From assembly GCA_963770895.1 (NCBI GenBank), contig CAVYRF010000002.1:3840001-3904000 (forward strand): a stretch of 64,000 nucleotides of DNA, written 5' to 3'. Numbering within the stretch: position 1 is the stretch's first letter; each line of letters opens with the position of its first letter. The position numbers were made by a program, and so were the translations under genes. The notes under the pieces were generated by a model. It searched no databases and was not told the DNA's origin. It saw nothing but the letters and a program-made list of their open reading frames with translations. This DNA is from an uncultured Acidobacteriota bacterium (GTDB lineage: Bacteria; Acidobacteriota; Thermoanaerobaculia; Multivoradales; UBA5704). Below are positions 1 to 64,000 of this stretch, piece by piece.

Positions 1-2142
1 GCAAACTCGTCGCGCACCTCCCCAAAGGCGGCGCTGGCCTCCTGCCTGTTGCCCATTCCAGCCGCGACGCGACCTTGCAACCAGCCGACACGCAGAAGGT
101 CCAATTCGTTGGCCAACACAAGCGTGAGCTGCCGCAAGATCGGGACCTGAGCTGCTGCTTCGGAGAAGGCGCCGAGATGACAGAGATTGACGCCCATATT
201 GAAGGCCAGCACCCACTGAAGCCTTGGGTCGCCGGTCTGGCGGACCAAGGGAGCGGCTTCGCTCAGAGCGGCCAATGCTGCGGCCGAGTCGCCCGCCAGC
301 TCCAAGGTGTAGGCGCGATTGAGCAAGATTCGTCCTGCCGCAGAGCGCGGGGCCATGAGAGCGGCACGGTCGAGGAGATCGAGCGCAGCGGCGAATTGAC
401 GCGCATCGCGACGCAGGGACGCCTCCAAGTCGACTAAGCGCCACGCCGGAAGGACGGCGGTCGGATCGCCGGCGGCGCCAGCGTTCCAGAGCTGCCAGAC
501 GGTCTGCCATTCGGCGTCCGCCTGGATGAGGTTCCCCTGGACACGCAGGGCGTTGGCGAGAAACGCCCGCGCATAGCCTTGCAACCGGCTACGCCAGGCG
601 TCCGAGCCGGCGGCGAGCCCGGCAACCGTGACAGCGAGCTGCGCCAGCTCCAGGGCGGTGTCTGCGCTGTTGGGCGCGGCACGCCGACTTTCGTCGGCGA
701 GCCGTTCGGCGAGCGCCCAGCTCTGAAACGCCGGGAGGCACTCGACGAGGAGCAGGCGCCGCGAGGGAGCGCAGCCGGCGAGGACCTTCCAGAGCTTGTC
801 GGTTTGGGCGCGGGCGCGGGCGACGCTGCGGGCGGCGGCTCTGGCCGGCAGGGAGGCTTTTGCCAGGGCGGCGACCTCCACCGCGAGATGCGCCGCGGCC
901 TGACGCACGATGCGGTCTTCTGCTGGCGTCACGGTGGCAGGATGTGCGGGGATGGCACCACCGGCCGCGGTGGAAGGGGCGAGCGCCGAGATGGTGAGCA
1001 GCACGAGATCGACCTCGGCGGGGGCGTAGCCCATCGCCGCCGACGCCAGAGCTTCGAACCGCCGGCGGGTCAGAGTGCGATTGTCACGCTCATAACCGGA
1101 GACGCTGCTTTGGTGCGCGTCGGCGGCCGCCGCAAGGTCCTGCTGCGTCCAGGCGATGCGCTCGCGGAGCCAGACGAGGGCGATGCGCCAAGGGCGCGGG
1201 AGATCGTGGGGCGAAGCGTCGGTGGTGCCTCGGTCTGGCGTCGTGGCCGCAGCGGGAGGGCACGGGCCCGGACTTCCGGCCGTGTGGGGAGGTGCGGCGT
1301 CTCCGTCGTCGGCGGCCAGGGCGACCTTGTGGGTAGAGCGGCCCATCGCTGCGTACAAGTCGAGCAGGTGGCGCTCGGGGAGGATACCGGCCGGGTCGCC
1401 CGAGACGCCGGCGCGCCAGAGGCGCCAGGCGGTGCGCCATTCGGCAAAGGCGGCGGTCCGGTTGCCCGACACGTTTAGGGCGTCAGCCAGGTAGGCGTGA
1501 GCATAGCCCGCCATCCGGTTGCGCCACGCGGGCGAGCCGACGACGAGGCCGGCCGCCGTTACGGCAAGGTGCGCCAGTTCGAGGGCGGTGGCGACGTCCG
1601 CGGACGCGGCGCGCTGGCTTTCCTGGGCGAGGCGCTCGCAAAGGGCCCAGGTTTGGAATGCCTGCAAGCGCCCGACAAGGAGCCGGCGCTGCGCCTGGCT
1701 GGCGGCGTCAATGCGGAGCCACAGAGGTCCGGCCTTGGCGCGGTCCCGGTCGATGCGGCGCGCGGCAATCCTGGCACGCAGTCTGGGCTGGGCGACAGCG
1801 GCGACCTCGACCGCGAGATGCGCTACGGCTTGGCGCAGGGGACTGGCCGGCAGCGCGGGCGTCGCGACGGCCTTGTCGGCGACGGCTCCGTCGCCCGCGA
1901 TCTCCGGACCGAGTGCCGCAACGGTACCCAGCGCCAGCTCGACCTCGGCAGGGCTGTAGCCCATGGTGGTCTGTAAGGTGCTGGAAGCGGCGGCGGTGCA
2001 GCGGGCGGATCGCCCGTTCATAACACGAAATCTGGGCGTGGGTAATGCCGGCGGCCTGCGCGAGCTGCCGCTGGGTCCAGCCGACGCATTCCCTTAGCCA
2101 GATGAGGGCGATGCTGTCGGATTGGGGGATCGTTCTGGGCAT
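1..2142 (-). CDS. XRE-family HTH + TPR-like regulator with a tandem internal duplication of the HTH/helical module; frameshift near 1970; runs off the window edge
   Basis: ATG at 2142 gives MPRTIPQSDSIALIWLRECVGWTQRQLAQAAGITHAQISCYE (HTH). After ...RRRFQHLT the homologous sequence continues in another frame (MGYSPAEVELAL, ATG at 1964), which stays open to base 1. A second HTH copy (IALVWLRERIAWTQQDLAAAADAHQSSVSGYE) lies at ~1090-1190, followed by TPR-like helices similar to the 6459 gene. Confidence 0.8.
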
Positions 2143-6458: not shown

Positions 6459-8075
6459 ATGCTGTGGAGGGTAAGCCGGGTGCCGGTTCGTGACGAGATG
6501 CAGATGCTGGCTCGCCTGCTGCGTGCGATCCGCGGCGTCAGCCAGGATGAGATGAGTGCCGCGGCGTCGATCGACCGCAGCACGATCAGCCGCTATGAAA
6601 CGGGCGACATGGTCCCTTCCCGGGCACACTTGGCGCGCCTGACTGGCGCGGCAGGGCTGTCGCTCGCGTTTGCCGAATCCGTGCTGTTGCCGGTGGTTCG
6701 CTTGGTGTTGGAACCCGCCGCGGCCAGGTGGCAGCGGGTCCCGGCGCCGGCCGATAACGGTGCGGCCACCTTGGAGCAGGCTCTGCTTGGCACGGTACGG
6801 GCTGGGTTTGCCACGTTGGAGGCTGGCCTGTCGGTAGGCAAAGCGGCCGATCCCCATGGTCCCCCCGCGGTCGAGGATCGACTTCCGGTTGCCGAGCTAT
6901 GGGCGGAGATCCGGTCCTGTCCGCCCGCAGAGCGGCGCGACCTGATCGCGCGGCGCTCCGGCTTTCACACCTGGGCCTTCTGCGCAAAGCTGTGCGAAGA
7001 AAGCGCACGAGCTGCCGCGCACGATGCCCGACACGCACTCGACCTGGCGCAGCTGGGATTGCTGACCGCGCACCACGCGCCCGGAAGCACTGCGGGGAAG
7101 GCCTATATTGAGGGCTACGCCTGGGCCTTCGTGGGCAACGCGCTGCGGGTTGGGGGCGATTTGCCGGCGGCCGATGCCGCGTTTGCCATGGTGGGGACAC
7201 TCTGGCGGGCATCCCCGGGCCAGGCGGCTGGCGTGCTTGCCGCTTGGCGTGTCCCGTATCTGGAGGCAGCACTGCGGCGCGATCAGTGCAACGTGCGGCG
7301 GGCGCTCGATCTGCTGGATCGAGCCCGCGAGATGGCGCCGCGCGAGGCAACCGGGCGCATCCTGGTGTGCAAGGCGACCGTGCTGCAGCGATCCGGCGAG
7401 ATTGCGGCCGCACTCGCGACCCTGGGCGAAGCCGAGCGTGGCATCGACGCCGCGGCACAGCCACGGCTCGACTTGCTCCTGCGACACGACCAGATCGCGT
7501 GCCTTTGCCATCTCGGGCGATACCGCGAGGCAGAGGTCCAGCTTTGCGGGGTGGACCCGGCACGTCTTTGCGCGGACAACGACCCGGACCTACAATTCGC
7601 CTGGCTGAAGGCCCGCATCGCCGCGGGTCGAGGGCGTCGGCAAGAGGCTCGGACGGGGTTGGAGACGCTGCGGGCGGCGTACGCAGCACAGAAGCGCGCG
7701 CACGAGGTGGAGCTGGTCTCGCTGGAGCTGGCCATCATCTACCTGGACGACGGTCGGCTGGGGGAGGTCTGCGCCATGGCCAACTCTATCTCCTGCATTC
7801 TCGGCTCGGAGCGCATCCACCGCGAAGCTCTGGCAGCGCTGCGCCTTTTCTGCGAAGCCTCAGGGATCGAAGGCGGTGCCCGCGCCCAGGTTCAAAGGTT
7901 GCGCGCCCACCTGGATCGCGCCCGCCAGGATCCGCGGCTGATTTTCGGCTCGTCCCTGCCATCTGTGGCCCAGCAGCGGAGACTAATAAGGTGTTGGCGC
8001 ATCACAGCATCAACAGAAACGCAGCAGAAGGGGCCAAAAAGGCCCAGAGAGGAGTTCTGTGTATGCGGTTGGTGA
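6459..8075 (+). CDS. XRE-family HTH + TPR transcriptional regulator (alternative start GTG 6480)
   Basis: LRAIRGVSQDEMSAAASIDRSTISRYETG HTH, then TPR-like helices; shares FHTWAFCAKLCEESARAA...GYAWAFVGNALRV motifs with the 1-2142 gene. Confidence 0.85.
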   Translation: MLWRVSRVPVRDEMQMLARLLRAIRGVSQDEMSAAASIDRSTISRYETGDMVPSRAHLARLTGAAGLSLAFAESVLLPVVRLVLEPAAARWQRVPAPADNGAATLEQALLGTVRAGFATLEAGLSVGKAADPHGPPAVEDRLPVAELWAEIRSCPPAERRDLIARRSGFHTWAFCAKLCEESARAAAHDARHALDLAQLGLLTAHHAPGSTAGKAYIEGYAWAFVGNALRVGGDLPAADAAFAMVGTLWRASPGQAAGVLAAWRVPYLEAALRRDQCNVRRALDLLDRAREMAPREATGRILVCKATVLQRSGEIAAALATLGEAERGIDAAAQPRLDLLLRHDQIACLCHLGRYREAEVQLCGVDPARLCADNDPDLQFAWLKARIAAGRGRRQEARTGLETLRAAYAAQKRAHEVELVSLELAIIYLDDGRLGEVCAMANSISCILGSERIHREALAALRLFCEASGIEGGARAQVQRLRAHLDRARQDPRLIFGSSLPSVAQQRRLIRCWRITASTETQQKGPKRPREEFCVCGW

Positions 8076-11000
8076 AGCCCCTGATTATGGTCATTGTGGC
8101 GAGCGTTGCGTTTGCCTCGGTGAGCCATGGCCAGACATGCGTGACCGCGGCCAGGGTGGGGCCGCCCGAGCCGGGGCGAACGTTTGCTGAACCGCTCAGG
8201 CCGGTAGGCGAGCCCAACGTAGAGGAGACCCGCGAGCTGGCGGCGGCGATCCGCACTTATCGCGCCGCTGTGGATATCGAGGCGGTACAGCCGGTGGTCG
8301 AGTTCCTGCAACAACATCCCGATTCGGCATGGAAGCCGTCCCTGTGCGCTAACCTGGCGGTGCTCTATCGCCACACCGGCTATCTGGACCACGCCCTGAC
8401 GATGGCCGAAGAGGCGTGGCGGCTGACCGCCACGTCCACCGACCCCGAAGCGCGAAAGATCGCCGATGACGCGCTGGCAACTCGTATCGAGGTAACCTCG
8501 GCCCTGGGCCGCACGGCCGAGCTGGCGGCGCTGCTCGACGCAGTGCGTGATCGGCCGCTGAGCGGGCACGCGGCAGAGATGGTGTCGGGCGCGCGGTCCA
8601 GTCTGTGGCAGATGCGCCACGATCCGGGCAGCTCCTTCCGCTGCGGCCCGCTGGCCATCGAGCGCGTCGCCGCGGTCCTCCATCCGGGAGCTCTAGCCGA
8701 CCCGCGCGTGCAGCAGTACCGTTCGACCAGCCAGGGCACTTCGCTGGCCGAGATGGCGCGGCTAGCCCAGACGACCGGCTTGGATTTGCAGGCGGTCAAA
8801 CGCCAGCCCGGCTCGCCCATCCCGGTGCCCGCGGTGGTGCATTGGAAGGCCGACCACTTCGCGGCGCTCGTGGCGCAGCAGGGCGACCGCTACCTGGTCA
8901 AGGACATGACGTTCGGCGACGACCGCTGGCTCAGCCGCGCCGCGGTGGAAGAAGAGTCGTCGGGCTATCTGCTGGCCCAGACCCCAAAGGCACTGTCGGA
9001 TGGCTGGCGGCGGGTGACCGCCGCGGAGGCGGCAGCGGTCCGCGGGCGAGGCGCGAGCGCCAATCCCAACCCCGGAGCGACCACCCCGGGCGACCCCAAA
9101 AAGCCGGCGCTGTGCGGCGGCAACGGCATTGGCATGCCGGTCTACAACTTTCACACCGCGGTGGTGAGCCTGAACGTCACCGACGCGCCGGTCGGTTATC
9201 AGCCGCCACGCGGACCGGCGATGCGGTTCGGCATCACCTATAACAGCCGCGAGGACTTTCAGCCCTCCACCTTCACCTTCACCAACCTGGGCTCGCGCTG
9301 GAGCTTCGACTGGCTGTCGTATGTCGAAGACGACGACCCGAACGGCAACGGCAACACCATCCGCGTCGCGGAGTTGGGTGGCGGTTCGTACATCCTGCCG
9401 CAGACCTCGACGACGTCCGGGTACCAATACGGGCCCAATGTGCGCGGCACGCACGAAACAGTGACCCGTATCTACCAGACGAACACCAACACCACCATCG
9501 GCTTCGCCCGGCAGTTTCCCGACGGTTCGCAAGAGATCTACCAGCTTTCCGACAATGCCGCAATGATGCGGAAGTATTTTCTGACCGCGGTGACCGACAC
9601 GCTGGGCAATACGATCACGCTCAACTACGACGCCGCCACCACGCGCCTGTTGTCGATCACCGATGCCCTGGGCCAGACGACGACGCTCACCTATGGGCTG
9701 GCGGGCGACATCTATAAGGTGACCGCGGTCACCGATCCGTTCGGGCGTCAGGCGCTCTTCCAATATTCCGGTGGCGAGCTGCAAAGCGTCACCGACGCGG
9801 AAGGCATGACGTCCTCGTTTGCGTATGGGCGGCCCACCGTGCCGGCGCCGGCGGCGCCCTATTGCGTGAACTTCGGCTACGACCTGGTGTACCCCGTGCC
9901 GGCGGATTTCATGAATGCAATGACCACGCCGTACGGCACGACGACCTTCGTCATGGGCGAGGAGCCACCGTGCGTCGACAGCGACCTGGGCAATATCCGC
10001 TGGCTGGTGGCGACCAACCCGCTGGGCAACCAGGAGCGCATCGAGTTCACCCACGAGGCTCAGAACGTCCCCGAGACCACCACCGAGCCGATCCCCGCCG
10101 GCTTCGGCAATGAAAATCTGGCGTACCGCAACACCTATTATTGGAATCAGACGGCGATGGAGCAGTACAGCGACGGCGATCCCAATCGCTATCTGAACGC
10201 GACTTACACCTTTCACTGGCTGCGCGACTTTTCGGAAGGCGGGACGGCAGCGTCTTCGATTCCGGGATTTGTCCAGCCGCTGGGCCAGCGCCGGACCTGG
10301 ATGGGCTACCCCAACATGCCCGGCGACAGCGACCAGGGCAGCCTTTCGGAGCCGACGGTCACCGCGACGGTGCTCGACAGCGGCCAGACCCGTGCATACA
10401 CCTACGCCTACAATTCTTCTGGCCGGCCGTATAACTACACCGACCCGACAGGGCGCACCTACAGCTACGAGTACGCGGCCAATGGGATCGATATGATCCG
10501 GGCGCTCGCCACACAGTTGGATGGCGGCGGTCCTGGCATCACCTGGGCCGGCGAGCAGCTGGCCACCCTGACTTACAACTCGCAGCATGAACCGCTGACC
10601 TACACCGACTATGCGAACCAGCGGTCCACGTTCACATACAACGGCTTCGGCGAGATGACCTCGGTACAGCGACCGGATGGGGTGACCACCAACTTCACCT
10701 ACGACGGCCACGGTTTTCTGACTCGCAAGGCGATCGCCGGCACCTCCTATCAAGAGACCTTCACCTACGATTCAGCCGATCGTCTGCTCACCTGGACGTC
10801 GACCGACGGCTACACCTTGACGTTGAGCTACGACGCGCTCGACCGTCTCACCCGCATCACCTATCCGGACGGCACCATGGACCAGGTGATCTACGACAAG
10901 CTGGACGTCGTGGCGTATCAGGATCGAATGGGACGCGTCACCACCTACGCCTACGACGCCGCCGATCGGCTGGCGTCGGTCACGGATCCGGCGGGCCGCA

Positions 11001-12097
11001 CCACGACCTATTCCTGGTGCGGCTGTGGAGCGCTGTCGCAGGTGGCGGACCCGCGTGGCGTTCTGACCACCTGGATGCTCGACGGCCTCAACCGGGTGAT
11101 CGGCAAGCAGGTCAACGGCGCCACGGTGGCGCTGTTCACCTACGACGACGCGGGTAGGTTGATCCAGCGCACCGACGGGCTGGGGCAGATCACCAACTAC
11201 AGCTACACCGTCGACGACCGGCTGGCCGGGGTCGGCTATCAGAACAGCGTCCATACGACGCCCGGCGTGCAGTATTTCTACGACCAGTACTATCCGCGCC
11301 TGGCCATGATGACCGATGCGTTCGGTTCGACGACCTACACCTACAACCCGGCAGGCAGCGTCGGTGCGGGGCAGGTTGCGAGCATCACCGCGCCGGCTCC
11401 CGAGCACACGATCATATTCCAGTACGATGTCGACGGCCGGCGGATCGGCAAGACGGTCGACGGGTTGGCACAGACGCAGACCTACGACAGCCAGGATCGC
11501 CTGAGCAGCTGGGAAAACTCGCTCGGTACCTTCACCGCCACCTACGCCGGATCGTCCAACCGGATGGCGACGTTGTCCTACCCCAACGGCCAGGGGGCGG
11601 TGTTCTCCTATCTCGGTGGCACGCAAGACTTCCGGCTGTCGCAAGTCGTCTGGGGGTCGACGGGGAACGGCCCCAACCTGTCGCAGTTCGGCTATTCCTA
11701 CGATGCCGCCCACCAGCAGGTCGTTGGCCTCTCCTGGTTCGACATCAACAGCCCGACGGGCCGGTTCTTCAACTTCACCTACGACCCCGCGCAGCAGCTG
11801 ACCGCGCGCCAGCAGACGACGAATCCGGCGCAGTCGCCGGTGACAACGCAGCATTCCTACACGTTCGGCTACGACGCGTCGGGCAACCGCACCAGCGAGA
11901 CGTTCGACACCGCGCTGTCGACCGCCGCCTACGACGGCGCCAACCAGCTGATCCGGCTCGACACCGGCCTTAGCCTTCAGGCGCAGGCGGCGATGCAGCA
12001 GCTGAGGGCTCATTCGTCGGCGGTGCCACCACCAAGTCCAGCCGGAGCCGCCCAGGCGGCTTCAGACAGCGTCAGGGAGGGCAGCCATGAGAACTGA
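8063..12097 (+). CDS. rhs: secreted Rhs/YD-repeat protein with N-terminal C39 cysteine peptidase domain; lacks the Rhs-associated core
   Basis: Signal peptide MRLVKPLIMVIVASVAFASVSHG; C39 motifs RCGPLA (Cys 8642), GTSLAEM, VVHWKADHFAAL, VKD; many YD repeats (YDALDRLTRITYPDG, YDAADRLASVTDPAG); no DPxG core before the stop. Confidence 0.9.
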   Translation: MRLVKPLIMVIVASVAFASVSHGQTCVTAARVGPPEPGRTFAEPLRPVGEPNVEETRELAAAIRTYRAAVDIEAVQPVVEFLQQHPDSAWKPSLCANLAVLYRHTGYLDHALTMAEEAWRLTATSTDPEARKIADDALATRIEVTSALGRTAELAALLDAVRDRPLSGHAAEMVSGARSSLWQMRHDPGSSFRCGPLAIERVAAVLHPGALADPRVQQYRSTSQGTSLAEMARLAQTTGLDLQAVKRQPGSPIPVPAVVHWKADHFAALVAQQGDRYLVKDMTFGDDRWLSRAAVEEESSGYLLAQTPKALSDGWRRVTAAEAAAVRGRGASANPNPGATTPGDPKKPALCGGNGIGMPVYNFHTAVVSLNVTDAPVGYQPPRGPAMRFGITYNSREDFQPSTFTFTNLGSRWSFDWLSYVEDDDPNGNGNTIRVAELGGGSYILPQTSTTSGYQYGPNVRGTHETVTRIYQTNTNTTIGFARQFPDGSQEIYQLSDNAAMMRKYFLTAVTDTLGNTITLNYDAATTRLLSITDALGQTTTLTYGLAGDIYKVTAVTDPFGRQALFQYSGGELQSVTDAEGMTSSFAYGRPTVPAPAAPYCVNFGYDLVYPVPADFMNAMTTPYGTTTFVMGEEPPCVDSDLGNIRWLVATNPLGNQERIEFTHEAQNVPETTTEPIPAGFGNENLAYRNTYYWNQTAMEQYSDGDPNRYLNATYTFHWLRDFSEGGTAASSIPGFVQPLGQRRTWMGYPNMPGDSDQGSLSEPTVTATVLDSGQTRAYTYAYNSSGRPYNYTDPTGRTYSYEYAANGIDMIRALATQLDGGGPGITWAGEQLATLTYNSQHEPLTYTDYANQRSTFTYNGFGEMTSVQRPDGVTTNFTYDGHGFLTRKAIAGTSYQETFTYDSADRLLTWTSTDGYTLTLSYDALDRLTRITYPDGTMDQVIYDKLDVVAYQDRMGRVTTYAYDAADRLASVTDPAGRTTTYSWCGCGALSQVADPRGVLTTWMLDGLNRVIGKQVNGATVALFTYDDAGRLIQRTDGLGQITNYSYTVDDRLAGVGYQNSVHTTPGVQYFYDQYYPRLAMMTDAFGSTTYTYNPAGSVGAGQVASITAPAPEHTIIFQYDVDGRRIGKTVDGLAQTQTYDSQDRLSSWENSLGTFTATYAGSSNRMATLSYPNGQGAVFSYLGGTQDFRLSQVVWGSTGNGPNLSQFGYSYDAAHQQVVGLSWFDINSPTGRFFNFTYDPAQQLTARQQTTNPAQSPVTTQHSYTFGYDASGNRTSETFDTALSTAAYDGANQLIRLDTGLSLQAQAAMQQLRAHSSAVPPPSPAGAAQAASDSVREGSHEN

Positions 12098-15000
12098 GCG
12101 TCGGGTGGAAGCCGTGCGCGGCCGGTGGCTGCCGTTCGTCCTGGTGTGCGCCGTCATCGTTGCCGGCGGCTCGATCCGGCCGGCAGGTGCCCAGGAAACC
12201 GTCACGATCAGCGGACCGACCACTTTGAACCAGACCGAATATGCGACCTACAACGGAATCGACAATCCCGGTGCCTACGGGGTCACCTGGTCGATTTACC
12301 CATCGGCAGGAGTCACCCTGAGCAATTTCACCAATACGTCGGTCCAGGTCACTGCCGGCGCCACGGCCGGCGTGTACACCCTGACCGGCACTGGCGGTGA
12401 CGGCACCACGGGGCATCTCAACATCACCGTTCCAGGCCCTCCGGTGACCTCGGTGAGCCCGCTGACTGCCGTGGTCGCTGCCGGCCAGACCATCGATTTC
12501 TACGCCAGCGTCGTCAACGCGAGCTCGCAGGCATACGCTTGGTGGACGGATGATCCGAGCGGTTGGGCGCTTGGGGGTGGTCAAGCGGATGCTGGCCCCG
12601 TCGGCCAGTTCTACCACAACGCAGGCCGGTCGGGAGGGACGTTCCACGTCTATGTCGAAAACTTGGAAAACAACCTCTCCGGCGTCGTGGCCGTTGCGAC
12701 CGTGCAGGTGGTCGATGTCGCCGTGGCGCCGGCGGCCGTGACCGTCCTGCCAGGCACCTCGCGGCAGTTCCTGGCCGACGTGACTGGCAGTCAGCAAAGC
12801 GTGCAATGGTCCTCGACGATACCGGGAGCAACGTTTGCGAACACCGGCCTGCTGCAGGTGCCGGCGGGCGCCGCCGGAGGGTCCTATACCGTCACGGTAC
12901 GGACCGTCGGCAATCCGGTGGCGACCAGCACCGCCGCCGTGACGGTGGTGGCGTCCATGCCGGTGAGCGGAGTCGCCATCTCGCCGGCGCGGTCGGTGCT
13001 CGATTCCGGGCAGCAGGCGCCCCTGTCGGCGGTCGTCGAAGACCCCAACGGCGAGCCGCATCCCAACCAGGCGGTGACCTGGTTGGTTGCCGGCCCGACG
13101 CCGGCGTCGATCGCCACCAATGGCCTGTTCACCGCCCCTGGCGTGCCCGGTGTCTACATCGTCACGGCAACCTCGGTGACAGATCCCACCAAGTCGGGCA
13201 CGGCGACGATCACGGTGGGTGAGGATCTGATGATTCTGCCGTCGTCGGCCAGCCTTGCACCAGGCGCCAGCCAGTCCTTCACCGCCCAGGTTAGCGGGGT
13301 GACGAATCCCACCGTCACCTGGAGCATCGAAGAGGGGGCGGCGGGCGGCAGCATCTCGACGGCCGGGCTCTACACCGCGCCCGCGGCGTCGGGGACCTAT
13401 CACGTGCTGGCGGCCGCCACCGCGGCGGGTGGTGGGACGGTGCAGGGCCTGGCGACGGTGACGGTGAGCGCCGGTCCGCGTGTCGGCATCGCCGTCGCAC
13501 CTGCGGAAACCACCGTGGCGGCGGGCGGCATGCAGCAGTTCACCGCTGCCGTCACCGGCGCCGCCGACACCGGTGTGGTGTGGTCCGCGTCGGCAGGCTC
13601 GATCGATGCGACCGGGCTTTTCACCGCTCCTGCGACCGACGGCACCATCACCATCACTGCCACCAGCCATGCCGATTCGCAGGTGCAGGCATCGGCAACC
13701 GCGGTCGTCACGGTTCCCGGCCAGGGGCAGGCGTTCCAATACGATGCCAACGGCAATGTCCTATCCGACGGCACCCGCATCTACGAATGGGACGCGGAAA
13801 ACCGGCTGACGGCGATCAACATCGGCACCCAGCGCAGCCAGTTCGGCTACGACGGGCTGGGGCGGCGCGTGCTGATCACCGAATTGAGCAACGGCGCGGT
13901 GGTCACCAGCCGGCACTACATTTGGCTGGGCGACGAAATCGTCGAAGAGACGGACGCCACCGTCGACGCGACGGGAACAGTCACCGGGCCAGGCAACTAC
14001 GACTCCCTCAACTGCAACCAGGTCGCCGGCTGGGCCTGGAACCCAGCCCAGCCCAATACGCCGGTCAGCGTCAGCATCGAATCCGGCGCCACCACCATCT
14101 CGACGGTGCTGGGCAACAACTATCGCAGCGACCTCAAGCTCGCCGGCGCTGGCAATGGCAATCACGGCTTCACCTATCCGCTGCCAGCGCAGTTCAAGAC
14201 TGGCACGGCGCAATCGGTGACGCTCTCCATCACCGGCACGACGATATCGCTCGGCACCCGCACCGTGACCTGTCCCGCGCCCAGCTTCTCCGGTTCGTTC
14301 GACCTAGCCACATGCACCCAGCTCGCCGGTTGGGGGTGGGACGCCAACGAGCCCAACGACCCGATCAACGTTGACATCTACGACGGCACCACCCTGATCG
14401 CCACCGTCCTTGCCAACACTTTACGCCAGGACCTGCTCAACGCCGGCATTGGCAACGGCGCACACGGCTTCTTCCTCCCCACGCCTGCCGCGCTCAAGAC
14501 CGGCACCGCCCACACCATCACCCTCAAAGCCGGCGGCACGCCGACGGTCATCGGCGCCCCACAAACGCTGACCTGTTCCAGCGCCAACTTCGGCGGGTAC
14601 TTCGACACTGCCGATTGCACCCAGCTGGTCGGTTGGGCCTGGGATGCCAATCAGCCCCATGCCGCCCTCAACGTGGACCTCTACGACAACGGCGCCCTGC
14701 TGGCCACTATCCCCGCCGCCAACTTCCGCCAGGATCTGCAGAATGCCGGCAAGGGCAACGGCGATCACGGTTTCGCCTACTCTTCGCCAGCCCTCTACTC
14801 CGGCACCACGCACAGCCTGTCCATCAACTATGCGGGCACCACGATCCCCCTGGCCAGCTCGCCGAAGACCATTACCTGCCCGACCGAACCGATCCTCACC
14901 CGCTTCTTCCTCGGAGGCATGCAGTCCGGCGGCGCCAATTATTACTTCTCCTACGACCACCTGGGCAGCGTGCGCGAAGTCACCGATACCAGTGGCAACG

Positions 15001-15683
15001 TCGTCAGCCGCTACGACTACGACTCCTACGGGCGATTGACCGTCAACCAGGGCGTCCCACCGCGCTTCGGCTTTGCCGGCCAGTACTACCACTCCGCCTC
15101 CGGCCTCAACCTAACTGAGTACCGCGCCTACGACCCGAATGTGGGGCGTTGGGAAAGCCGCGATCCGGCCGGCGAGATGGCGGGGCCAAACCTCTACGAC
15201 TACGTGGAGAACGACCCAATCAACTCGACCGATTCCGACGGTTTGGCTAGAAAACCAAGCACGAAACCTCCGCGCCAATGGCCGCCTTTGCCGGAAAACC
15301 TGGGCGGCAAAAAGGCGAAGTGGAACAAAAACGGGTATTGGGTGGGTAAGGGCGGCAAGTGCTATACATGGGACAGCCGGTCTCATGGCGCGAATATCGA
15401 TCGAGGAAAGGGACCCCAAGAGGGCCATTGGGACACCGAGGGCCCGAACGACGAGCGCTATAACAAGAATGGGGATCCATTGTTCGAAGCCACTCCCAAC
15501 CCCTTCAATCAATGGTTGGGGGGCTTACAGTGGATTGGATCGTGGTATATGGCGCAAGCTGACAACTTCCTCAACAACCTGGAGCAGGGCTTGGAAAACC
15601 TGCCTAACTACGTGCAGCCGCCGCAGGCGAACCTGCCAGGCTACGCGCCACCGCCTTACCCGCCCCTGTATCTGATTTGGTGA
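12087..15683 (+). CDS. rhs: secreted Ig-domain protein carrying the terminal YD repeats, Rhs-associated core and a C-terminal toxin domain
   Basis: Own signal peptide (WLPFVLVCAVIVAGGSIRPAGA); Ig-like repeats (TWS...GSI...GLYTAP); YDANGNVLSDG...; core DHLGSVREVTD...RAYDPNVGRWESRDP...NDPINSTDSDGL; lower-GC tip from 15246. Confidence 0.9.
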   Translation: MRTERRVEAVRGRWLPFVLVCAVIVAGGSIRPAGAQETVTISGPTTLNQTEYATYNGIDNPGAYGVTWSIYPSAGVTLSNFTNTSVQVTAGATAGVYTLTGTGGDGTTGHLNITVPGPPVTSVSPLTAVVAAGQTIDFYASVVNASSQAYAWWTDDPSGWALGGGQADAGPVGQFYHNAGRSGGTFHVYVENLENNLSGVVAVATVQVVDVAVAPAAVTVLPGTSRQFLADVTGSQQSVQWSSTIPGATFANTGLLQVPAGAAGGSYTVTVRTVGNPVATSTAAVTVVASMPVSGVAISPARSVLDSGQQAPLSAVVEDPNGEPHPNQAVTWLVAGPTPASIATNGLFTAPGVPGVYIVTATSVTDPTKSGTATITVGEDLMILPSSASLAPGASQSFTAQVSGVTNPTVTWSIEEGAAGGSISTAGLYTAPAASGTYHVLAAATAAGGGTVQGLATVTVSAGPRVGIAVAPAETTVAAGGMQQFTAAVTGAADTGVVWSASAGSIDATGLFTAPATDGTITITATSHADSQVQASATAVVTVPGQGQAFQYDANGNVLSDGTRIYEWDAENRLTAINIGTQRSQFGYDGLGRRVLITELSNGAVVTSRHYIWLGDEIVEETDATVDATGTVTGPGNYDSLNCNQVAGWAWNPAQPNTPVSVSIESGATTISTVLGNNYRSDLKLAGAGNGNHGFTYPLPAQFKTGTAQSVTLSITGTTISLGTRTVTCPAPSFSGSFDLATCTQLAGWGWDANEPNDPINVDIYDGTTLIATVLANTLRQDLLNAGIGNGAHGFFLPTPAALKTGTAHTITLKAGGTPTVIGAPQTLTCSSANFGGYFDTADCTQLVGWAWDANQPHAALNVDLYDNGALLATIPAANFRQDLQNAGKGNGDHGFAYSSPALYSGTTHSLSINYAGTTIPLASSPKTITCPTEPILTRFFLGGMQSGGANYYFSYDHLGSVREVTDTSGNVVSRYDYDSYGRLTVNQGVPPRFGFAGQYYHSASGLNLTEYRAYDPNVGRWESRDPAGEMAGPNLYDYVENDPINSTDSDGLARKPSTKPPRQWPPLPENLGGKKAKWNKNGYWVGKGGKCYTWDSRSHGANIDRGKGPQEGHWDTEGPNDERYNKNGDPLFEATPNPFNQWLGGLQWIGSWYMAQADNFLNNLEQGLENLPNYVQPPQANLPGYAPPPYPPLYLIW
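13992..14882 (+). repeat. three ~100-aa tandem domain repeats inserted inside the Rhs core
   Basis: Units start at 13992, 14292 and 14595, each GxxDxxxCxQxxGWxW...RxDLxxAGxGNGxHGF...TC. Confidence 0.85.
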
Positions 15684-15757
15684 CGAAGCGGCGGGCGGTT
15701 GCCCGAATGCTTACGAAGAAGCGTCAGGCGAGCAAGATGCGTCAATGACATGAGGCT

Positions 15758-15790
15758 CACGGCGGCCGCCCTCGCCTGGCGGCTGCCGTG
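15758..15790. terminator. GC-rich hairpin between convergent genes (possible terminator)
   Basis: cacggcggccgcc-ctcgcct-ggcggctgccgtg inverted repeat; no clear U-tract. Confidence 0.35.
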
Positions 15791-15821
15791 CGGTCATAGT
15801 TCGTGCCCAGGTGAGAGGAGG

Positions 15822-16172
15822 TTATTCGTCCTCGAATTCCATCGGCATAACTTCATAATCAACACCAGGGATTGGCTCGAGGGATGTTTGATCGATCGAG
15901 GGCTCGAATCTCAATTCAGCGTTCGTCCTGAACAGATCGCGACCGCAATTCGGGCATGTCTGCAAGGTAACGGCATCAAGGTACTTGTCTCTACCCGTTG
16001 TTGCCCTGCTCTCAGACGAAATCTGGCACACGGCATCGATCATCCATCCTCCCCAACCGCATGCGTCCTTGCTGCAGGCGCACACTGCGTAGACGAGCCA
16101 GGCGTAATCGGGGCGATCGACATCGGAGAGTTCGATATCAAGCAGCGGTTGGAACTTTCTTGGAAAGGCCAT
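15822..16172 (-). CDS. hypothetical protein with putative zinc ribbon
   Basis: GAAGGAGG RBS; MAFPRKFQPLL...CACSKDACGWGGW...TCPNCG. Confidence 0.75.
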   Translation of the reverse strand: MAFPRKFQPLLDIELSDVDRPDYAWLVYAVCACSKDACGWGGWMIDAVCQISSESRATTGRDKYLDAVTLQTCPNCGRDLFRTNAELRFEPSIDQTSLEPIPGVDYEVMPMEFEDE

Positions 16173-16548
16173 GATTTCCTCCTTCATCAAGGATAGCAGA
16201 TAGAGATTATTTCTGTCGTGCCGATTCGAGTTGGATCAATCAGCCCTGGCGTCGCTCCGGAGATCGACCCGAAGGGCATGGATAGTAGGATCGCTGGCAC
16301 GGTCGGCTGGAATGTCGCAACAACGGCCGCAGTGGCCCTACCTGGACTGCCGGCCGGTTCACCACGGCGACGAGTTCGAAATCCAGCTCGTTGATGGCCA
16401 ATGGCGCCGGCTGTGGCTTGAAGGACTGCCGGCCGAGATCCTGGGCGGCCGGCGCTCGCCAGCGGCTACGAGCTGGTGGCCGAGGCGCCCCTCAAAGCGC
16501 TGCTTCGCTGGGCGGGCGCCAGCCGAGCAGCGCTGACCGTGCGTCGGC
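16059..16548. repeat. copy 1 of a ~490-bp imperfect direct repeat
   Basis: gcatgcgtccttgctgcaggcg...accgtgcgtcggc recurs at 19208-19697 with scattered substitutions and indels. Confidence 0.9.
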
Positions 16549-17476: not shown

Positions 17477-18755
17477 GGCGTCGTCAATAAACAACCTTTA
17501 CACATGAGGCCGAATAATGTAGTTCCATTCGCCATGGAAGGATTGGGGCAGCAGGTTCACGGTGGCGATCTCCTTGTCAGAGACCTTGCGCCCGACGGGA
17601 TAGGCTCGTCGGTCCAGTCGGCATGTCACCCTAAGCCCCTGAGCGGTGGTGGTCTTGGCGATCAGACGCACGATAGTCTCGTAGTCGCGAAGCGGTTCTC
17701 CTCGCCAGTTGGATGAGATGAAAGAAAACAGGCGGTGCTCTACCTTGTTCCACTTGCTCGTCCCGGGAGGAAAGTGACAAACCATGATGGAGAGCCCTGA
17801 GTCGTCGGCCAGCTCCTGAAGCTCCATTTTCCATTGACGCAGACGATAGCCGTTGCTGCCCCCACCATCAGCGGTGATGAGAAGAGTCCTTGCCTTGGGA
17901 TAGAGCCGCCGCCCTTCGGCGCGCCACCAACCGCGAATCGACGCCACCGCGAAGGCGCCAGTGTCGTGGTCAATGCCTATCGTCACGAAGCCAGTGTTTC
18001 GACCCAGATCGTAGACACCGTACGGGTACGCGCGCGGCACGGAGGGAGCTGGAAAGTCGTGGACATTGACCCGCTGCGGATCCCCTCTCTTTCGCCACTG
18101 CTGGCCCTTGTTCTGGTAGTTGCCGAGGATCTCCTTCTTCTTCGTGTCAACCGAGATGACCGGCCGCTTTGCAGCCAAGGCTTTGCGCACTTGCTCGTTG
18201 ATGTATTGAAACTGAGCATCGCGATCCGGATGGCTGCTCCCCTCGTCTGCCTTCCGGTTGCCTCGAAGGCTGTAGTCCATTTGTCGCAGCAACTGCGCCA
18301 CCTTCTCATGGCTGACCGGATGGTTCTGAGCCGCAAGTTCCGCGGCGAGGACGCGGGTGCTCTTGCTTGTCCAGCGTAGCGGGGACTCTGGGTCGCCGCT
18401 CGTCAGCGGCTCCACGAGAGCCTCCAACCGGCTCAGCAGGTCGGGGTCGAGCATTTCCAGCGATGGTCGCCCACCGCCTTCGCGCCGGACCCGACCCGCA
18501 GGTAGAGGGGCACTCTCGAGTTCCTGTAGACCCTTCGTGATTGTGACGCGAGACAAACCGCATGCCCGACTGACCGTCGACACACCGCCATGCCCCAGTT
18601 GACGAGCCTCGCTCGCCGCAAAGAGTCGTCGTGCACGCTCGTCCAGATGGGGCCAGAGGAGAGCCACCTTTTGCTGAAGCGATCGAAGATCTGTCATCTC
18701 CAAATCGTTGTATCACCATCTCCACGGCATGTCAATGTTATTTATTGACGCTGCC
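17477..18755. mobile_element. ISAzo13-family insertion sequence (1279 bp) with TTA target duplication
   Basis: Imperfect terminal IRs GGCGTCGTCAATAAACAA / (rc) GGCAGCGTCAATAAATAA; TTA at 17474-17476 and 18756-18758. Confidence 0.92.
17498..18697 (-). CDS. ISAzo13 family transposase (DDE_Tnp_ISAZ013)
   Basis: LDERARRLFAASEA, GDPESPLRWTSKS, ISVDTKKKE, ITADGGGSNG, HFPPGTSKWNKVEHRLFS, FHGEWNY. Confidence 0.95.
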   Translation of the reverse strand: MTDLRSLQQKVALLWPHLDERARRLFAASEARQLGHGGVSTVSRACGLSRVTITKGLQELESAPLPAGRVRREGGGRPSLEMLDPDLLSRLEALVEPLTSGDPESPLRWTSKSTRVLAAELAAQNHPVSHEKVAQLLRQMDYSLRGNRKADEGSSHPDRDAQFQYINEQVRKALAAKRPVISVDTKKKEILGNYQNKGQQWRKRGDPQRVNVHDFPAPSVPRAYPYGVYDLGRNTGFVTIGIDHDTGAFAVASIRGWWRAEGRRLYPKARTLLITADGGGSNGYRLRQWKMELQELADDSGLSIMVCHFPPGTSKWNKVEHRLFSFISSNWRGEPLRDYETIVRLIAKTTTAQGLRVTCRLDRRAYPVGRKVSDKEIATVNLLPQSFHGEWNYIIRPHV

Positions 18756-19207
18756 TTACCTGAAGGGGCGGGCTGCATGATCTGGCTTCGTGAATGGGGG
18801 GTGTGGCCTTCCTCCGAATTTCCGCAGCTCTGGGACGAGATACGTAAGTGCCATGGAGAGCAGCGCTGGATCATCGACGCGCCAGGCCATCTCTTTTCAG
18901 CGACAGAGATGGGACTGGCGAGAGGAATGGCGAGGCTCGTCATTCTTTTTGGTTGGGATGCGCTCATTTTCTCCATACCCTGTTCGTTCGTCGTATCTCT
19001 GTCGCACGACGAGGTTTGCACGATCTTCGACATCGACGTAGCTACTATGGATAAGCTTTCTGAGCGGCTCGGCGCTCCCCTTACATAAAGGTGCAGGTAC
19101 GGCACCAGGCGCGATCAAGGCAGCGGCAAGATGGACGTTGACGATCTGCGCCGCTGGGGGCTGTGGGATGCCAATCACCTGGAGCGTCGAAGAGGGGGCG
19201 GCGGGCG

Positions 19208-19697
19208 GCATGCGTCCTTGCTGCAGGCGCACACTGCGTAGACGAGCCAGGCGTAATCAGGGCGATCGACATCGGGGAGTTAGATATCAAGCAGCGGTTG
19301 GAACTTTCTTGGAAAGGCCATGATTTCCTCCCTCATCAAGGATAGCAGATAGAGATTATTTCTGCAGTTCCGATTCGAGTCGGATCAATCAGACCTGGCG
19401 TCGCTCCGGAGATCGACCCGAAGGGCTTGGATAGTAGGATCGCTGGCACGGTCGGCTGGAATTGCGCAACAACGGCCGCGGGGGCCTTACCTGGAGTGCG
19501 GGCCGGTCCACCACGGCGACGAGTTCGAAATCCAGCTCGTTGATGGCCAATGGCGGGCTGTGGCTTGACGGACTGCCGGCCGAGGTCCTGGGCTGCCGAC
19601 GCTCGCCAGCGGCTACGAGCTGGTGGCCGAGGTGCCCCCTCAAAGCGCTGCTTCGCTGGGCCGGCGCCAGCCGAGCAGCGATGACCGTGCGTCGGCC
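19208..19697. repeat. copy 2 of the ~490-bp direct repeat; contains a truncated pseudogene copy (GAA>TAA) of the 15822-16172 gene
   Basis: Minus strand from ATG 19321 reads MAFPRKFQPLLDI*; homology breaks off at 19208. Confidence 0.9.
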
Positions 19698-19813: not shown

Positions 19814-20045
19814 TCACTTCACCACCTCGCCGCCAACCAGGTGGCGGCGCAGCTGGCCGATCGCCCGCCAGCGGTCCTTGTGCATGCCGTGCATCGCAGC
19901 CGCGGGGGTGGCTGCGATCAGCTCGCGCTCGTTCAGGCCAATGGTGTAGAAGAGCCGCAGGATGCGCCGCTGCCTGGCGGGTAGCTTTTGGGCCATGCGG
20001 ACCAGATCGAGCCTGCTGTCGTGGTCCAGCTCCGGGGCGGGGCCG
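19814..20045 (-). pseudogene. C-terminal remnant of a sigma-70 region-4-like protein
   Basis: PELDHDSRLDLVRMAQKLPARQRRILRLFYTIGLNERELIA...RWRAIGQLRRHL; no recognisable N-terminal part. Confidence 0.5.
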
Positions 20046-23000
20046 TGGTGGTGGGCGTGGCGTGGCTGGGGTACGTCTTGGTGTGCATGCTGGGACGATG
20101 GAACGGGAGTGCCAGCCTGCTGCGGGGACTGTACGTGGAGCTGCCGCGATGGTTGGTGCGCAGGGCGCCGACGCGCGGCGATCTGGTGATGGCCTGTGCG
20201 CCGCGAGCAGGGGCCGAGTTGGCGCGGCGCTGCGGCTACCTGGAGGCTGGCGATTGCGACGCGGGCAGGGCCGGCGGCGCGGTACCTGTTGGCAAGGTCG
20301 TGCTGGCGGTGGCAGGGGACGTTGTGGAGGAGTCGGCGGACGGTCTGGTGGTGAACGGCCTGGCGGTGCCGGCATCGCGTCCGGCCGGCCGCGATGCGGG
20401 CGGGCGCGAGCTGGTGCCGTGGCGGTTGGGACGGACGCGGCTGGGCGCCGGGGAGGTGTGGTTGTTCGCGCCCTATCATCCGCGCTCGTACGACAGCCGC
20501 TATTTCGGGCCGGTGGCGGTCGCGAACCTCCCGGCGCAGGGCTTCAAGATCCACGTCTCGGCGACCCCGGCCAATGCCGTCGAGCTCCTGCGGCTAATCG
20601 TCCCCGATTGCGTCCTCGAGCAGGTGCAGTTCAAGGCCATCGCCAACTCCGCACTCCTCGGAATCATCACGTCCAAGAACTACGACCGTGGGAGCTCCAG
20701 CAAATTCCTGGTCCTGTACCCGCCGAGCACGGACCTGTTCAAGGCGCTCCTCGCCAGGTTGCACGCCAAGACCCGCCACCTCAGGGGTGCCTACATCCTT
20801 TCGGACCGGAGGTATCAAGACAGCCAGGTCCTCCACTACCGGTACGGTGGCTTCGCGGCCCGCTGGCAGCTGACGCCGGATGGCGGCCGCATGCCGCTCA
20901 TCGAGGCTCCGGACGGCACCCTGATCGCCGATCGCCGTCTGCCGTACTTCCAGCTGCCACCGTGGATCGACAATCCGTTCGGCGGCCTCAAGGACCTCAA
21001 AGCTGACAGCTCCCCGGAGGACGGCGCCCTCAACGGGCGCTATGAGGTGCAGTCGTCGCTCAGCTTCTCGAACTCGGGCGGGGTCTACCTCGCTATCGAC
21101 CGCCAGACCGGCAGGGAGGTGGTGCTCAAGGAGGCCCGACCGCTGACCAACCTCTGGCCGCGGGAGGATGGCGGCTATTTCGACGCTGTGGACAAGCTCC
21201 GCAACGAGTTCACGATCCTCCGCCGGCTCGAGCACCTGCCATTCGTTGTGAAGCCTCTGGAGCTCTTCGAGGAGTGGGAGCACGTATTCCTGGTCGAGGA
21301 GCGGTTCCACGGCATACCCTTGGGGAGCGTCAGGGCGAAAGACGAGTTTCACCTCCTGCCGTTCGTCCGCGACCGCCGGCGCGTGCGCCGCTTCTGCAAG
21401 CGTTTCCATGCCATCGCGCAGCGGTTGTGCGCCCACCTCGATGCCATCCACCGGGAGGGCATCGTGCTGGGCGACCTTTCCCCGAACAATATCCTCGTCA
21501 ACCAGGACACCTTGGACCTCTGCATCATCGATCTCGAGAGCGCCACCGTGCGCTGCGGCGGAGACGAGCTCGGCCGCGCGGCGAGCCTCTGGTCGACCCC
21601 CGGCTTTCGCAAGTACCGCGACGAGAGGAGCCGCACCGGTGTAATAAGCGTCGAGGACGACTACTACGCGCTGGGTATGACCCTGCTCGGCATGCTGATG
21701 CCCGTGACCCCTCTTTTCGATCTCGATCCGGCGGCGGAAGAGCGCCTCATGGAGAAAGCGGCGGCGTGCGTCGACCTCCCGGCGGAGGTGCTCGGGTGCA
21801 TTGCCGCGCTGCGCGACGGAAAGCTGCCCGAAGCCGTCCGGATTCTGGGTGCCTGGGACCCGGAAAGGCTTCTGGCGGGCGCCGCGAGACGCAAGGCAAA
21901 GAAGTGGAGCCTCGACTCCGCCGAGCTCGGCGAGTGGACCCGCCGTCTCGCTGCGTCCATCGTCGAGACCGCGACTCCCGGACGCAGAGACCGCTTGTGG
22001 CCCGGCGATATCAAGCAGTTCCAGACCGACCCGTTGAATATCGCCTGGGGTGCGTGCGGCACTGCGCTCTTTCTGGGCCGGGTGCTGGGGGAGCTACCGC
22101 GGTACGCCGAAGATTGGATCCTGGCGCGGCAGCCGCGCGCCGCGGATACTCCTCCGGGGCTCTATACCGGCTTGGCGGGGATAGCCTACGCGCTCGCCCA
22201 GCTTGGCCATGCGGAGCTGGGGGTACAGGCGATGGACAACTCCCGCGATTCGCCGCTGGTGTTCGCCGAGGCCAACTGGTTCGAGGGCAGCGCGGGATGG
22301 GGATGGGCCAACCTGTTCTTTTTCCGCATCACAGGTGAGCCGCGTTTCCTCGCGCGGGCGGTCGATGCCGGGGAGATGCTCGTGGCGACCGCCGAGATGC
22401 GCAGCGAGCAAGCGTTCTGGCGGCGCCATGGCGACGGCCGGATCCACTTCGGCCTGGCCTACGGTGGTGCGGGGGTGGCGTTGTTTCTGCTCTATCTGCA
22501 CCTGGCCACGCAGCAGATGAAATACATCCGGACCGCCAGACAGGCGCTCAGATTCGAAGCGGCGAACGGTCGCGAGCAGTTCGGCGGACTGGCGTGGCTG
22601 CGCTGGGAGGGAGACAGCCTGATCGTGCCCTATTGGCTCCACGGCAGCGCCGGAATCGCTACCGTCCTCTCACACTTCTACCGGCAGCTGGGAGACGAGG
22701 GCGACCTGCGCCTGGCGCGGCTGGCTGCCGCCGGCGCGTTTGCTCGCTTCACTGCGCAGTGCGACCAGTTCAACGGTCTGAGCGGTATCGGTGAGGCAAT
22801 GATCGACATGTTCCTTGCCACCGGGGAGAAGAGCTATCTCGAAAAGGCGTTCGACCTGGCCGACAGCGTTCTGCGCTACCGAATCGAGCTGCCGGCGATG
22901 CTGGCCTTTCCCGGGAGATACCTTCTGCGCGCGAGTCAAGACTTCGGCACCGGCGGCGCTGGCGTCGGCCTATTTCTCGACCGCCTCGCGCACCCCTCGC

Positions 23001-39832: not shown

Positions 39833-39975
39833 CGGTCCTCCTTTATAAATCATTATATTAAGACAATTCCTTCGGCTAGCGCATGCTCTACAACAGCTTA
39901 ATCATCTGTTATGGTAAATAGTAGTGATTAGATCAAGTCGCTCGGCAATTTCAGTGGTGATCGTCATTTAATTTT
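39833..39975. promoter_or_regulatory. AT-rich divergent promoter region between permease and NRPS
   Basis: Abrupt AT-rich tract (tttataaatcattatatta...) in otherwise very GC-rich DNA between divergent genes. Confidence 0.45.
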
Positions 39976-40269
39976 CGCAGGCGCGGCCGTGGATGCGCCA
40001 TCCGATGGAGGTGACCCAGGTGGGTTCCGACGAGAGAAGCAGAGGGGGGCGCACTGCGGCGGGCACCGCGATGCTTGGGGGGCTCTCGTGATCGGTCACG
40101 GCAGTGGGAAAGCGAGCCGACGACTTGCCCTTCCGAGGCTCCGTCAGGGCGAAGATTTGGTAGTTGCCGGTCGACTTCGACAGTACCATGCGCCGCGGCG
40201 AAGCCGAAATACCCGGCGGCCCTTCGCGGTATCCAGCGCGCCCGCCGCGGTGCGCCGCGGAAGGCCGCG

Positions 40270-47957: not shown

Positions 47958-64000
<16,043 letters not shown>

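Follow-up and report, generated by a model that had tools for sequence, protein, structure and literature searches.

The 64,000-nucleotide stretch of DNA analyzed here, referred to below as the window, comes from an uncultured member of the Acidobacteriota (contig CAVYRF010000002.1 of assembly GCA_963770895.1) and carries two overlapping genes that together encode the parts of an Rhs-type toxin. By the prevailing view, an Rhs/YD cocoon encloses the toxin at its own C terminus as it folds. At this locus, most of the YD-repeat shell is encoded by one gene, and the core with the presumed toxin by the next one, each with a signal-peptide-like N terminus of its own. The gene split is conserved and almost certainly not accidental. 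The following features were recognized in the window, with gene 1 denoting the upstream and gene 2 the downstream member of the pair.

8063..12097 (+): gene 1, shell subunit; 1344 aa, ATG at 8063, stop codon TGA at 12095-12097
8063..8131 (+): gene 1 signal peptide, residues 1-23; basic n-region, hydrophobic core, SHG/Q site; read directly
8630..8989 (+): C39-like cysteine peptidase, gene 1 residues ~190-309; from Pfam entry PF03412, alignment, and model
9314..11974 (+): YD-repeat beta-shell, gene 1 residues ~418-1304, C-terminal end incomplete; from the model and its alignment to solved Rhs and teneurin cocoons
11975..12094 (+): gene 1 C-terminal helix (residues 1305-1317) and Pro/Ala-rich tail; from the model and sequence reading
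12074..12097 (+): junction, with AGGGAGGG at 12074-12081, the gene 2 ATG at 12087, and the gene 1 TGA at 12095-12097
12087..15683 (+): gene 2, predicted plug/toxin subunit; 1198 aa, from the open reading frame (ORF) and domain matches
12087..12194 (+): gene 2 signal peptide, residues 1-36; AGA/Q site
12195..13706 (+): Ig-like beta-sandwich array, gene 2 residues ~37-540; five or six domains by length, of which Pfam detects three
13719..13961 (+): YD hairpins continuing the shell, gene 2 residues ~545-625, with YD_repeat at 568-597; colinear with the single-chain protein P0030 past the end of gene 1
13983..14891 (+): three ~100-aa repeats in tandem, gene 2 residues ~633-935; Cys pair and GWAW(D/N) in each; between the YD hairpins and the core
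14892..15245 (+): Rhs-associated core, gene 2 residues 936-1053, ending in DSDGL; TIGR03696 at 978-1053
15246..15680 (+): variable C-terminal tip, presumed toxin; 145 aa, delimited by the drop in identity to paralogues
15699..16196 (+): candidate immunity gene with an uncertain start codon; two further split-Rhs loci have homologues

Domain organization of the two genes

The frame of gene 1 is open already from position 7244; judging from the ORF and its translation, the start that yields a signal-peptide-like N terminus is the ATG at 8063. The encoded protein consists, in this order, of the signal peptide, a helical domain, the C39-like peptidase, a linker, a core-less YD shell, the C-terminal helix, and the tail. 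An initial sequence-only reading of the locus had described gene 1 as a signal peptide followed by a C39 peptidase and YD repeats with no core. The Pfam and NCBIfam scans agree with this description, as they recognized Peptidase_C39 (PF03412; 29.2 bits against a cut-off of 22, residues 217-309) and RHS_repeat (PF05593; 161.7 bits) and gave no match to Rhs_assc_core in this protein.

In the C39-like domain, Cys194 and His265 are invariant in 35 of the 35 aligned relatives, both split and single-chain, and Asp281 is conserved in at least 90% of them. The corresponding part of the structural model of gene 1 described below (model residues 46-165, protein residues 190-309) matches the double-glycine peptidase 6mpz_B with a Z score of 12.5, a root mean square deviation (RMSD) of 2.8, and 117 aligned residues; ComA and PCAT1 give similar structural scores. 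Given the match of its fold to double-glycine peptidases and the invariance of Cys194 and His265, this domain is probably an active peptidase. It is common to the split and the single-chain forms and is therefore not specific to the split. The leader of gene 2 was considered as a source of a double-glycine site for this domain. A GG pair is present there in loci A to D of the seven gene pairs in this genome (designated A to G), not in loci E and F or in other genomes, and this candidate was rejected because the pair is not conserved.

Gene 2 starts inside gene 1, with an overlap of 11 bp (12087-12097), and AGGGAGGG, which contains GGGAGG, ends 5 nt before its ATG. Both N termini combine a basic n-region, a hydrophobic stretch, and a small-x-small site (SHG/Q in gene 1 and AGA/Q in gene 2), and the N terminus of gene 2 reaches a maximum Kyte-Doolittle mean of 3.02 over 12 residues. 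Contigs from 4 soil metagenome runs span the junction found in the window with 0 letters inserted or deleted. These contigs serve only as a consistency check, because they belong to one study, possibly that of the sample from which the genome itself was obtained.

The overlap, the ribosome-binding site, the new signal peptide, the ~500 aa of Ig-like domains, and the core that had been ascribed to gene 2 were all recovered from the ORFs, the Pfam matches, and the match to Rhs_assc_core (TIGR03696; 74.2 bits against a cut-off of 32.5). The three tandem ~100-aa Cys-pair repeats had been missed. The Ig-like domains recognized by Pfam are Big_1 (residues 296-376), I-set (384-414), and Big_2 (468-533), with a total span of 288-533, and PF05593 scores 37.9 bits in this protein. 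The three repeats belong to no Pfam family and gave nothing credible even at E <= 10. Their counterparts, 39-50% identical, are found in otherwise unrelated secreted proteins, such as matrixins and proteins sorted by the type IX secretion system (P0137, P0141, P0148, P0158-P0160, and others), and further matches, at 42-46% identity, include a subtilisin; the matches in secreted proteins cover ~28% of the gene 2 query. These repeats appear to represent an unnamed extracellular module. In the gene 2 orthologue of genome G365 (L043:3497-7675, - strand), the site between the YD hairpins and the core that is filled in the window by the three unnamed repeats holds three Nbr1-type Ig domains (PF16158), and the orthologue from G379 has no insert at this site.

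The core region of gene 2 matches the core regions of TccC3, YenC2, Rhs, and TLP proteins in PDB. In the alignment of the cores of gene 2 relatives, Asp1049 and Gly1052 are invariant, and Asp1026 and Pro1027 are conserved in at least 90% of the sequences. Asp1026 and Asp1049 are 23 residues apart, a spacing equal to that of two aspartates of TccC3, namely D651, which is seen in the PDB match, and the second one, which we take to be D674. A DPxGL-type autoprotease motif is therefore recognizable in the core of gene 2, and self-cleavage of this protein can be predicted.

The C-terminal tip shows the variability expected of a presumed toxin. Compared with its six paralogues, gene 2 from the window is 65-91% identical in its YD part, 72-83% identical in its core, and just 9-20% identical beyond residue 1053. 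The tip has no Pfam match, and nothing credible was obtained at E <= 10. Its first ~80 residues recur, always near the C terminus, in 52 cluster representatives (E <= 1e-10), and of the nine such relatives that were scanned with Pfam, eight contain RHS or teneurin-type YD-shell domains. In two of these nine, the ~80-aa module is followed by Tox-WTIP (PF15654), which was rejected as an assignment for the window, where the tip gives no Tox-WTIP match.

The ORF at 15699-16196, the candidate immunity gene, belongs to no family, with nothing credible in Pfam at E <= 10, and the small ORF that follows gene 2 differs from locus to locus. One homologue of this ORF lies directly downstream of a fragment that resembles the tip from the window. 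Loci B, C, and D are followed by orphan pieces that have neither the signal peptide nor the Ig array of gene 2. These pieces correspond either to the part of gene 2 that begins at residue 537, with YD hairpins, repeats, a core, and another tip, or to its core alone. Downstream of locus B (G000:C2:1555247-1557621), a tip-like fragment is followed by the homologue of the candidate immunity ORF, whose frame runs on into a 755-aa orphan YD-repeat-core-tip cassette. The exchangeable subunit proposed in the sequence-only reading is thus supported only in part. Since the orphan cassettes start at the YD hairpins and do not include the signal peptide and the Ig array, any exchange would seem to proceed by displacement of the YD-core-tip part through recombination, as is usual, and not by a swap of whole subunits.

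Conservation of the gene split

A search with the gene 1 protein gave 1121 significant matches, of which the best 120 were analyzed. In this set, relatives with 40-83% identity are core-less proteins of 1285-1367 aa, and those with 34-39% identity are mostly core-bearing proteins of 1420-2090 aa that are named “RHS repeat-associated protein.” Close homologs are therefore not always single-chain. A hidden Markov model (HMM) built from the core region of gene 2 relatives detected a core in 86 of the 120 proteins and none in the other 34. The latter comprise 24 full-length split-type proteins, 8 sequences that are seemingly truncated or represent a damaged copy from the same genome as the window (P0017, P0022, P0024, P0055, P0070, P0079, P0089, and P0106), and 2 proteins with a discoidin end (P0114 and P0121).

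The genome that contains the window (8.16 Mb in 3 contigs, 95% complete) encodes seven copies of gene 1, each with a copy of gene 2 immediately downstream, and no full-length stand-alone gene 2. The split paralogues diverge down to 59-64% identity. The junction is an 11-bp overlap in five of the seven pairs and a 4-bp ATGA overlap in one, and it is deleted in the remaining one. Five of the pairs are intact and two are damaged. Locus G (G000:C2:5443026-5449273), a 98-99% identical copy of locus F (C1:532434-539794), has suffered a 1110-bp out-of-frame deletion that spans the junction of gene 1 and gene 2, and locus D (G000:C2:653404-660530) contains a frameshift near gene 1 residue 165.

The conservation search proposed in the sequence-only reading was extended to the phylum, in which further genera and families proved to share the layout. 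A query with gene 1 residues 1-400 against 401 sampled genomes (E <= 1e-10) detected the N terminus of C39-Rhs proteins in 14 genomes, including the one studied here. The respective frames are of split length (about 1300-1450 aa) in 9 cases, single-chain (1521-1740 aa) in 4, and a weak fragment in 1. Gene 1 precedes a large ORF that combines Ig-like or PKD domains with YD repeats and an Rhs core at two loci of G365 and in G379 and G292. In G242, the downstream ORF shows Ig-like and YD matches and leaves the contig before the core; the contigs of G371 and G161 hold only the first 481 and 151 residues of this ORF, respectively, and those of G228 and G212 offer no sequence downstream of gene 1. 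A basic-hydrophobic-AxA N terminus of the second gene was seen in all seven loci outside the studied genome for which the sequence continues past gene 1. Together with the seven adjacent pairs of the studied genome, it upholds the original view that the break is not accidental.

In other genomes, the two genes either overlap by 4 bp or are separated by 8 to about 60 nt, so that overall an 11-bp overlap is found in five loci, a 4-bp overlap in four, and gaps in the remainder. A Shine-Dalgarno-like GGAGG or GGGAGG precedes the start of gene 2 in loci A, B, and E of the studied genome and in L043 and L044; elsewhere, such motifs are weaker or absent. Among the public sequences, the pair-type proteins P0029 and P0164 have neighboring locus tags on one metagenome-assembled genome (MAG) contig. 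Adjacent genes annotated as “YD repeat-containing protein” and “RHS repeat-associated core protein” can represent two halves of one machine, which is a common trap in genome annotation. In the 1905-aa protein P0019, encoded on a MAG contig of 6816 bases, gene 1-like sequence is fused in frame to gene 2-like sequence at the latter's third or fourth Ig domain, and another in-frame deletion lies internally near the N terminus; P0019 may be a natural re-fusion or a collapsed assembly of paralogues.

The tree of gene 1 was built from 111 relatives (24 split, 84 single-chain, and 3 discoidin-type), leaving out P0019 and the eight truncated or damaged sequences. The split forms fall into two clades of 21 and 3 members, each with a support of 1.0. 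The nodes that separate these clades are weakly supported (0.57 and 0.71), so the split may have arisen once or twice, both histories being possible on this tree. The larger clade is marked by the C-terminal helix of gene 1, whose motif RGL..A.AA...ARA is conserved in, and specific to, its members, and by a Pro/Ala-rich tail, the final E-G-G codons of which coincide with the ribosome-binding site of gene 2.

Interpretation of the pair and its genomic setting

The claim that gene 2 resumes where gene 1 stops is corroborated by colinearity with single-chain relatives and by a model of gene 1 that lacks the end of the cocoon. Residues 83-1319 of the single-chain protein P0030 (1730 aa) are matched by gene 1 residues 39-1313, whereas P0030 residues 1303-1521 and 1459-1577 are matched by gene 2 residues 475-696 and 936-1053, respectively. 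The break lies directly after a conserved N-Q-L motif that closes the last YD hairpin of gene 1, as read from the sequence. At this site, several single-chain relatives carry one Ig-like insert before a Y-E-W-D hairpin and others carry none; the larger split clade has the conserved helix and the Pro/Ala-rich tail instead.

An AlphaFold2 model of gene 1 residues 145-1344 has a pLDDT of 75.3 overall and mostly 80-93 in the shell, and it aligns to Rhs cocoons with Z scores of 13 to 17. In the Rhs protein of Salmonella bongori (8qjc), the model covers residues 360..1172 of a core domain annotated at 360-1420 (Z score 15.5, RMSD 3.3, 751 aligned residues). In Tse15 (8uy4), with its cleavage aspartates at 1369 and 1391, it covers residues 234..1145 (Z score 16.9, RMSD 4.0, 749 aligned), and in the TLP structure 9ifo_A it covers residues 706..1992 (Z score 16.4, RMSD 5.1, 668 aligned), with the core of gene 2 matching the same protein by sequence at 2029-2144. 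As the model always stops before the ends of the solved cocoons, gene 1 can be predicted to lack roughly the last ~180-250 residues of the cage. The YD hairpins of gene 2 (about 85 aa) and its core (about 118 aa) come close to the length absent from gene 1.

These observations favor, with a probability of about 0.7, a conserved Rhs polymorphic toxin of two translationally coupled, Sec-signalled chains, with gene 2 completing and plugging the shell of gene 1. Gene 1 would code for a Sec-exported protein with the C39-like peptidase and approximately the first four fifths of the beta-spiral shell, and gene 2 for a second Sec-exported protein, whose Ig-like array and three-repeat insert probably face outwards as binding modules. 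Its YD hairpins would lengthen the open edge of the gene 1 shell, and its Rhs core would close the shell and cut itself after Leu1053 by means of the aspartyl autoprotease. The 145-aa tip would be the cargo toxin, neutralized in the producer by the product of the small downstream gene. The chains would assemble after export, with the tip enclosed, and the complex would leave the cell, competing bacteria being its presumed target.

Several points weigh against this scheme. It requires the enclosure of a cargo that is exported apart from most of its cage, and the signal peptides were called by eye and from hydropathy. The gene 1 model has only moderate confidence (pTM 0.59) and starts after residue 144. 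No conserved neighboring gene for export or assembly is found outside the pair across 13 loci. Finally, some copies in the studied genome are decaying, as two of its seven pairs are damaged.

A bolder version of the scheme, for which the odds fall somewhat short of even, is that the pair represents a second, independently evolved two-chain Rhs cocoon that is assembled outside the cytoplasm and loaded with its toxin in trans, its split perhaps having been born twice. The cage and the chain that carries the plug, the cargo, and the adhesin array would each cross the inner membrane unfolded via Sec and assemble in the periplasm or on the cell surface. The site between the YD hairpins and the core might then be a landing pad for binding modules, such as the three repeats in the window and the three Nbr1-type Ig domains in L043. 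If the cage and the cargo-bearing plug are indeed exported separately, this would be a natural system for studying toxin enclosure in trans, as well as what is recognized by the edge of an unfinished shell and how other cargo could be loaded via the small subunit. If true, it would also add an abundant interbacterial weapon to the Acidobacteriota, a soil phylum whose competition systems have been little studied.

Alternatively, the two proteins could function independently, gene 2 as a self-sufficient Sec-secreted adhesin-toxin whose core is no more than a remnant that serves self-cleavage and gene 1 as a cargo-less shell in another role, for example, as a decoy or as a surface protein that bears a peptidase. 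There are indeed shell-only relatives that end differently at the C terminus (the discoidin-ended P0114 and P0121), and gene 2 has large binding-type domains of its own. Nevertheless, this possibility appears unlikely. The two genes are strictly adjacent, with start-stop coupling, in all loci examined, they are colinear with the single chains, and the shell of gene 1 ends where the YD hairpins of gene 2 start. The ~200 residues of YD hairpins and core are too few to form a cage alone, and the studied genome has no full-length gene 2 on its own.

It is highly improbable that both genes give a single polypeptide through programmed frameshifting or readthrough at the overlap, as the overlapping frames and the fused P0019 might suggest. 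The junctions vary between loci (11-bp and 4-bp overlaps, gaps of 8 nt to ~60 nt), which means that there is no conserved slippery site, and a ribosome-binding site and a signal peptide of gene 2 would be pointless within one chain. In P0019, the two in-frame deletions have removed the tail, the signal peptide, and the first Ig domains, and this short-contig sequence may be an assembly artefact. The least credible option, a recent nonsense mutation, frameshift, or assembly error that turned part(s) of a single-chain rhs gene into a pseudogene, would fit the frequent decay of Rhs loci and the lesions in loci G and D but is contradicted by several findings. The split recurs, with differing junction sequences, in paralogues that retain no more than 59-64% identity as well as in further genera and families; gene 2 opens with a signal peptide and extra domains of about 500 aa or more; and the metagenome contigs cross the junction without indels.

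The surroundings of the pair in the window are of several kinds. Upstream, positions 6459-8075 (+) encode a 538-aa protein with an XRE-type helix-turn-helix N terminus, whose end reaches 13 nt into gene 1; it was not found upstream of the other six pairs in this genome. Just downstream of the toxin locus, a DDE transposase (PF07592, 454 bits) is encoded at 17498-18703 (-). Parts of the ORFs 15699-16196 and 16231-16536 (positions 16060-16533) are repeated at 19205-19681, with 83-93% protein identity in four matched segments, which points to an insertion sequence flanked by a duplicated segment. Positions 19988-23092 (+) code for a 1034-aa protein with a signal-peptidase S26-like N terminus and RamC_N, protein kinase, and LanC-like domains, which resembles lanthipeptide synthetases of class III/IV but for an unusual fusion at its N terminus. 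Farther downstream are genes for two large, probably surface or secreted proteins, one (24589-29280, +) with CBM96, Glucodextran_B, and CarboxypepD_reg domains and the other (30242-33829, +) with LVIVD, bacterial TSP3, Big_7, and CarboxypepD_reg domains. They are followed by a MacB-type ABC permease (37433-39853, -) and by large genes for non-ribosomal peptide synthetases that contain condensation, adenylation, and carrier domains (40075-46974, +, and 47958-64000, +), the second of which leaves the window.

Comparison with known Rhs systems

The usual Rhs form, with shell, core, and toxin in one polypeptide, does not apply to this locus, which has two ORFs whose split is kept in relatives. The closest counterparts in one polypeptide are the single-chain C39-Rhs proteins of Acidobacteriota, Verrucomicrobiota, and other bacteria (such as P0030 and P0031). 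They share the N-terminal helical and C39-like domains and the core, and their shells are 36-39% identical to gene 1 over 94% of its length. Unlike the pair, they consist of about 1420-2090 aa in one chain, have no second signal peptide, and contain one Ig-like insert or none; the three-repeat insert was not present in those sequences that were read.

The Rhs effectors of type VI secretion systems (T6SS), namely RhsA, RhsP, Tse5, Tse15, and Tre23-Rhs, resemble the pair in the cocoon fold (Z scores of 13-17), the core motif, and the variable tip. However, they are single chains carried on VgrG or PAAR, as opposed to two chains with signal peptides. The absence of T6SS genes noted from the sequence holds in both respects in which it was examined: the T6SS sheath protein (PF05943) was not found in the 95%-complete genome, nor were PAAR and VgrG found at the locus.

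Sec signals are known from other YD-shell toxins. WapA is such a Sec-signal toxin, with a polymorphic C-terminal domain and an immunity gene. The same features characterize the TLPs (9ifo, 9pt5), as described in PMC13018210. In contrast to the pair, the TLPs are single chains defined there by the combination of an FN-plug, NHL repeats, and a YD shell, and no two-gene form is described in the consulted passages of PMC13018210. In the pair, NHL and FN-plug gave no Pfam match at E <= 0.01, although the low-confidence linker (gene 1 residues 331-417) was not examined separately. A search of the literature, with supplements and subscription journals outside its reach, found no description of a split Rhs bearing signal peptides.

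When the sequence-only reading described canonical Rhs cages as one polypeptide, it left out of account the TcB/TcC cocoon of the Tc toxins (TcdB2-TccC3 and YenB/YenC2; 4o9x and 4igl), in which an Rhs-type beta-cocoon is likewise encoded by two genes. TcC and gene 2 are alike in that the last shell strands, the aspartyl-protease core, and the variable toxin tip reside on the second product. According to PMC11067744, one TcB subunit accepts different C subunits. TcB is further characterized by an SpvB-type N-terminal region and by a beta-propeller gate for TcA.

The position of the break differs. On the gene 1 model, the alignment of the TcC chains (6l7i_G 5..549 and 4igl_D 4..581) begins at residue ~680, about 480 residues before the end of gene 1, which places the Tc break in the middle of the shell; in the pair described here, gene 2 contributes just the last ~200 residues of the shell. 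The pair also differs from Tc in having Sec-type signal peptides on both chains, the C39-like peptidase in gene 1, and the Ig-like array in gene 2. SpvB (PF03534) has no match in gene 1 or elsewhere in its genome, whereas control genomes did match, and residues 223-437 of the gene 1 model weakly resemble the N-terminal domain of SpvB (6p0x_A, Z score 8.7). VRP1 of TcA (PF03538) has no match in this genome either, but the control genomes gave none as well. To our knowledge, TcB/TcC is the only two-chain Rhs cocoon known, with another architecture and another split point; because it is already known, the two-chain Rhs cocoon proposed here would be a variant of this design and not the first of its kind.

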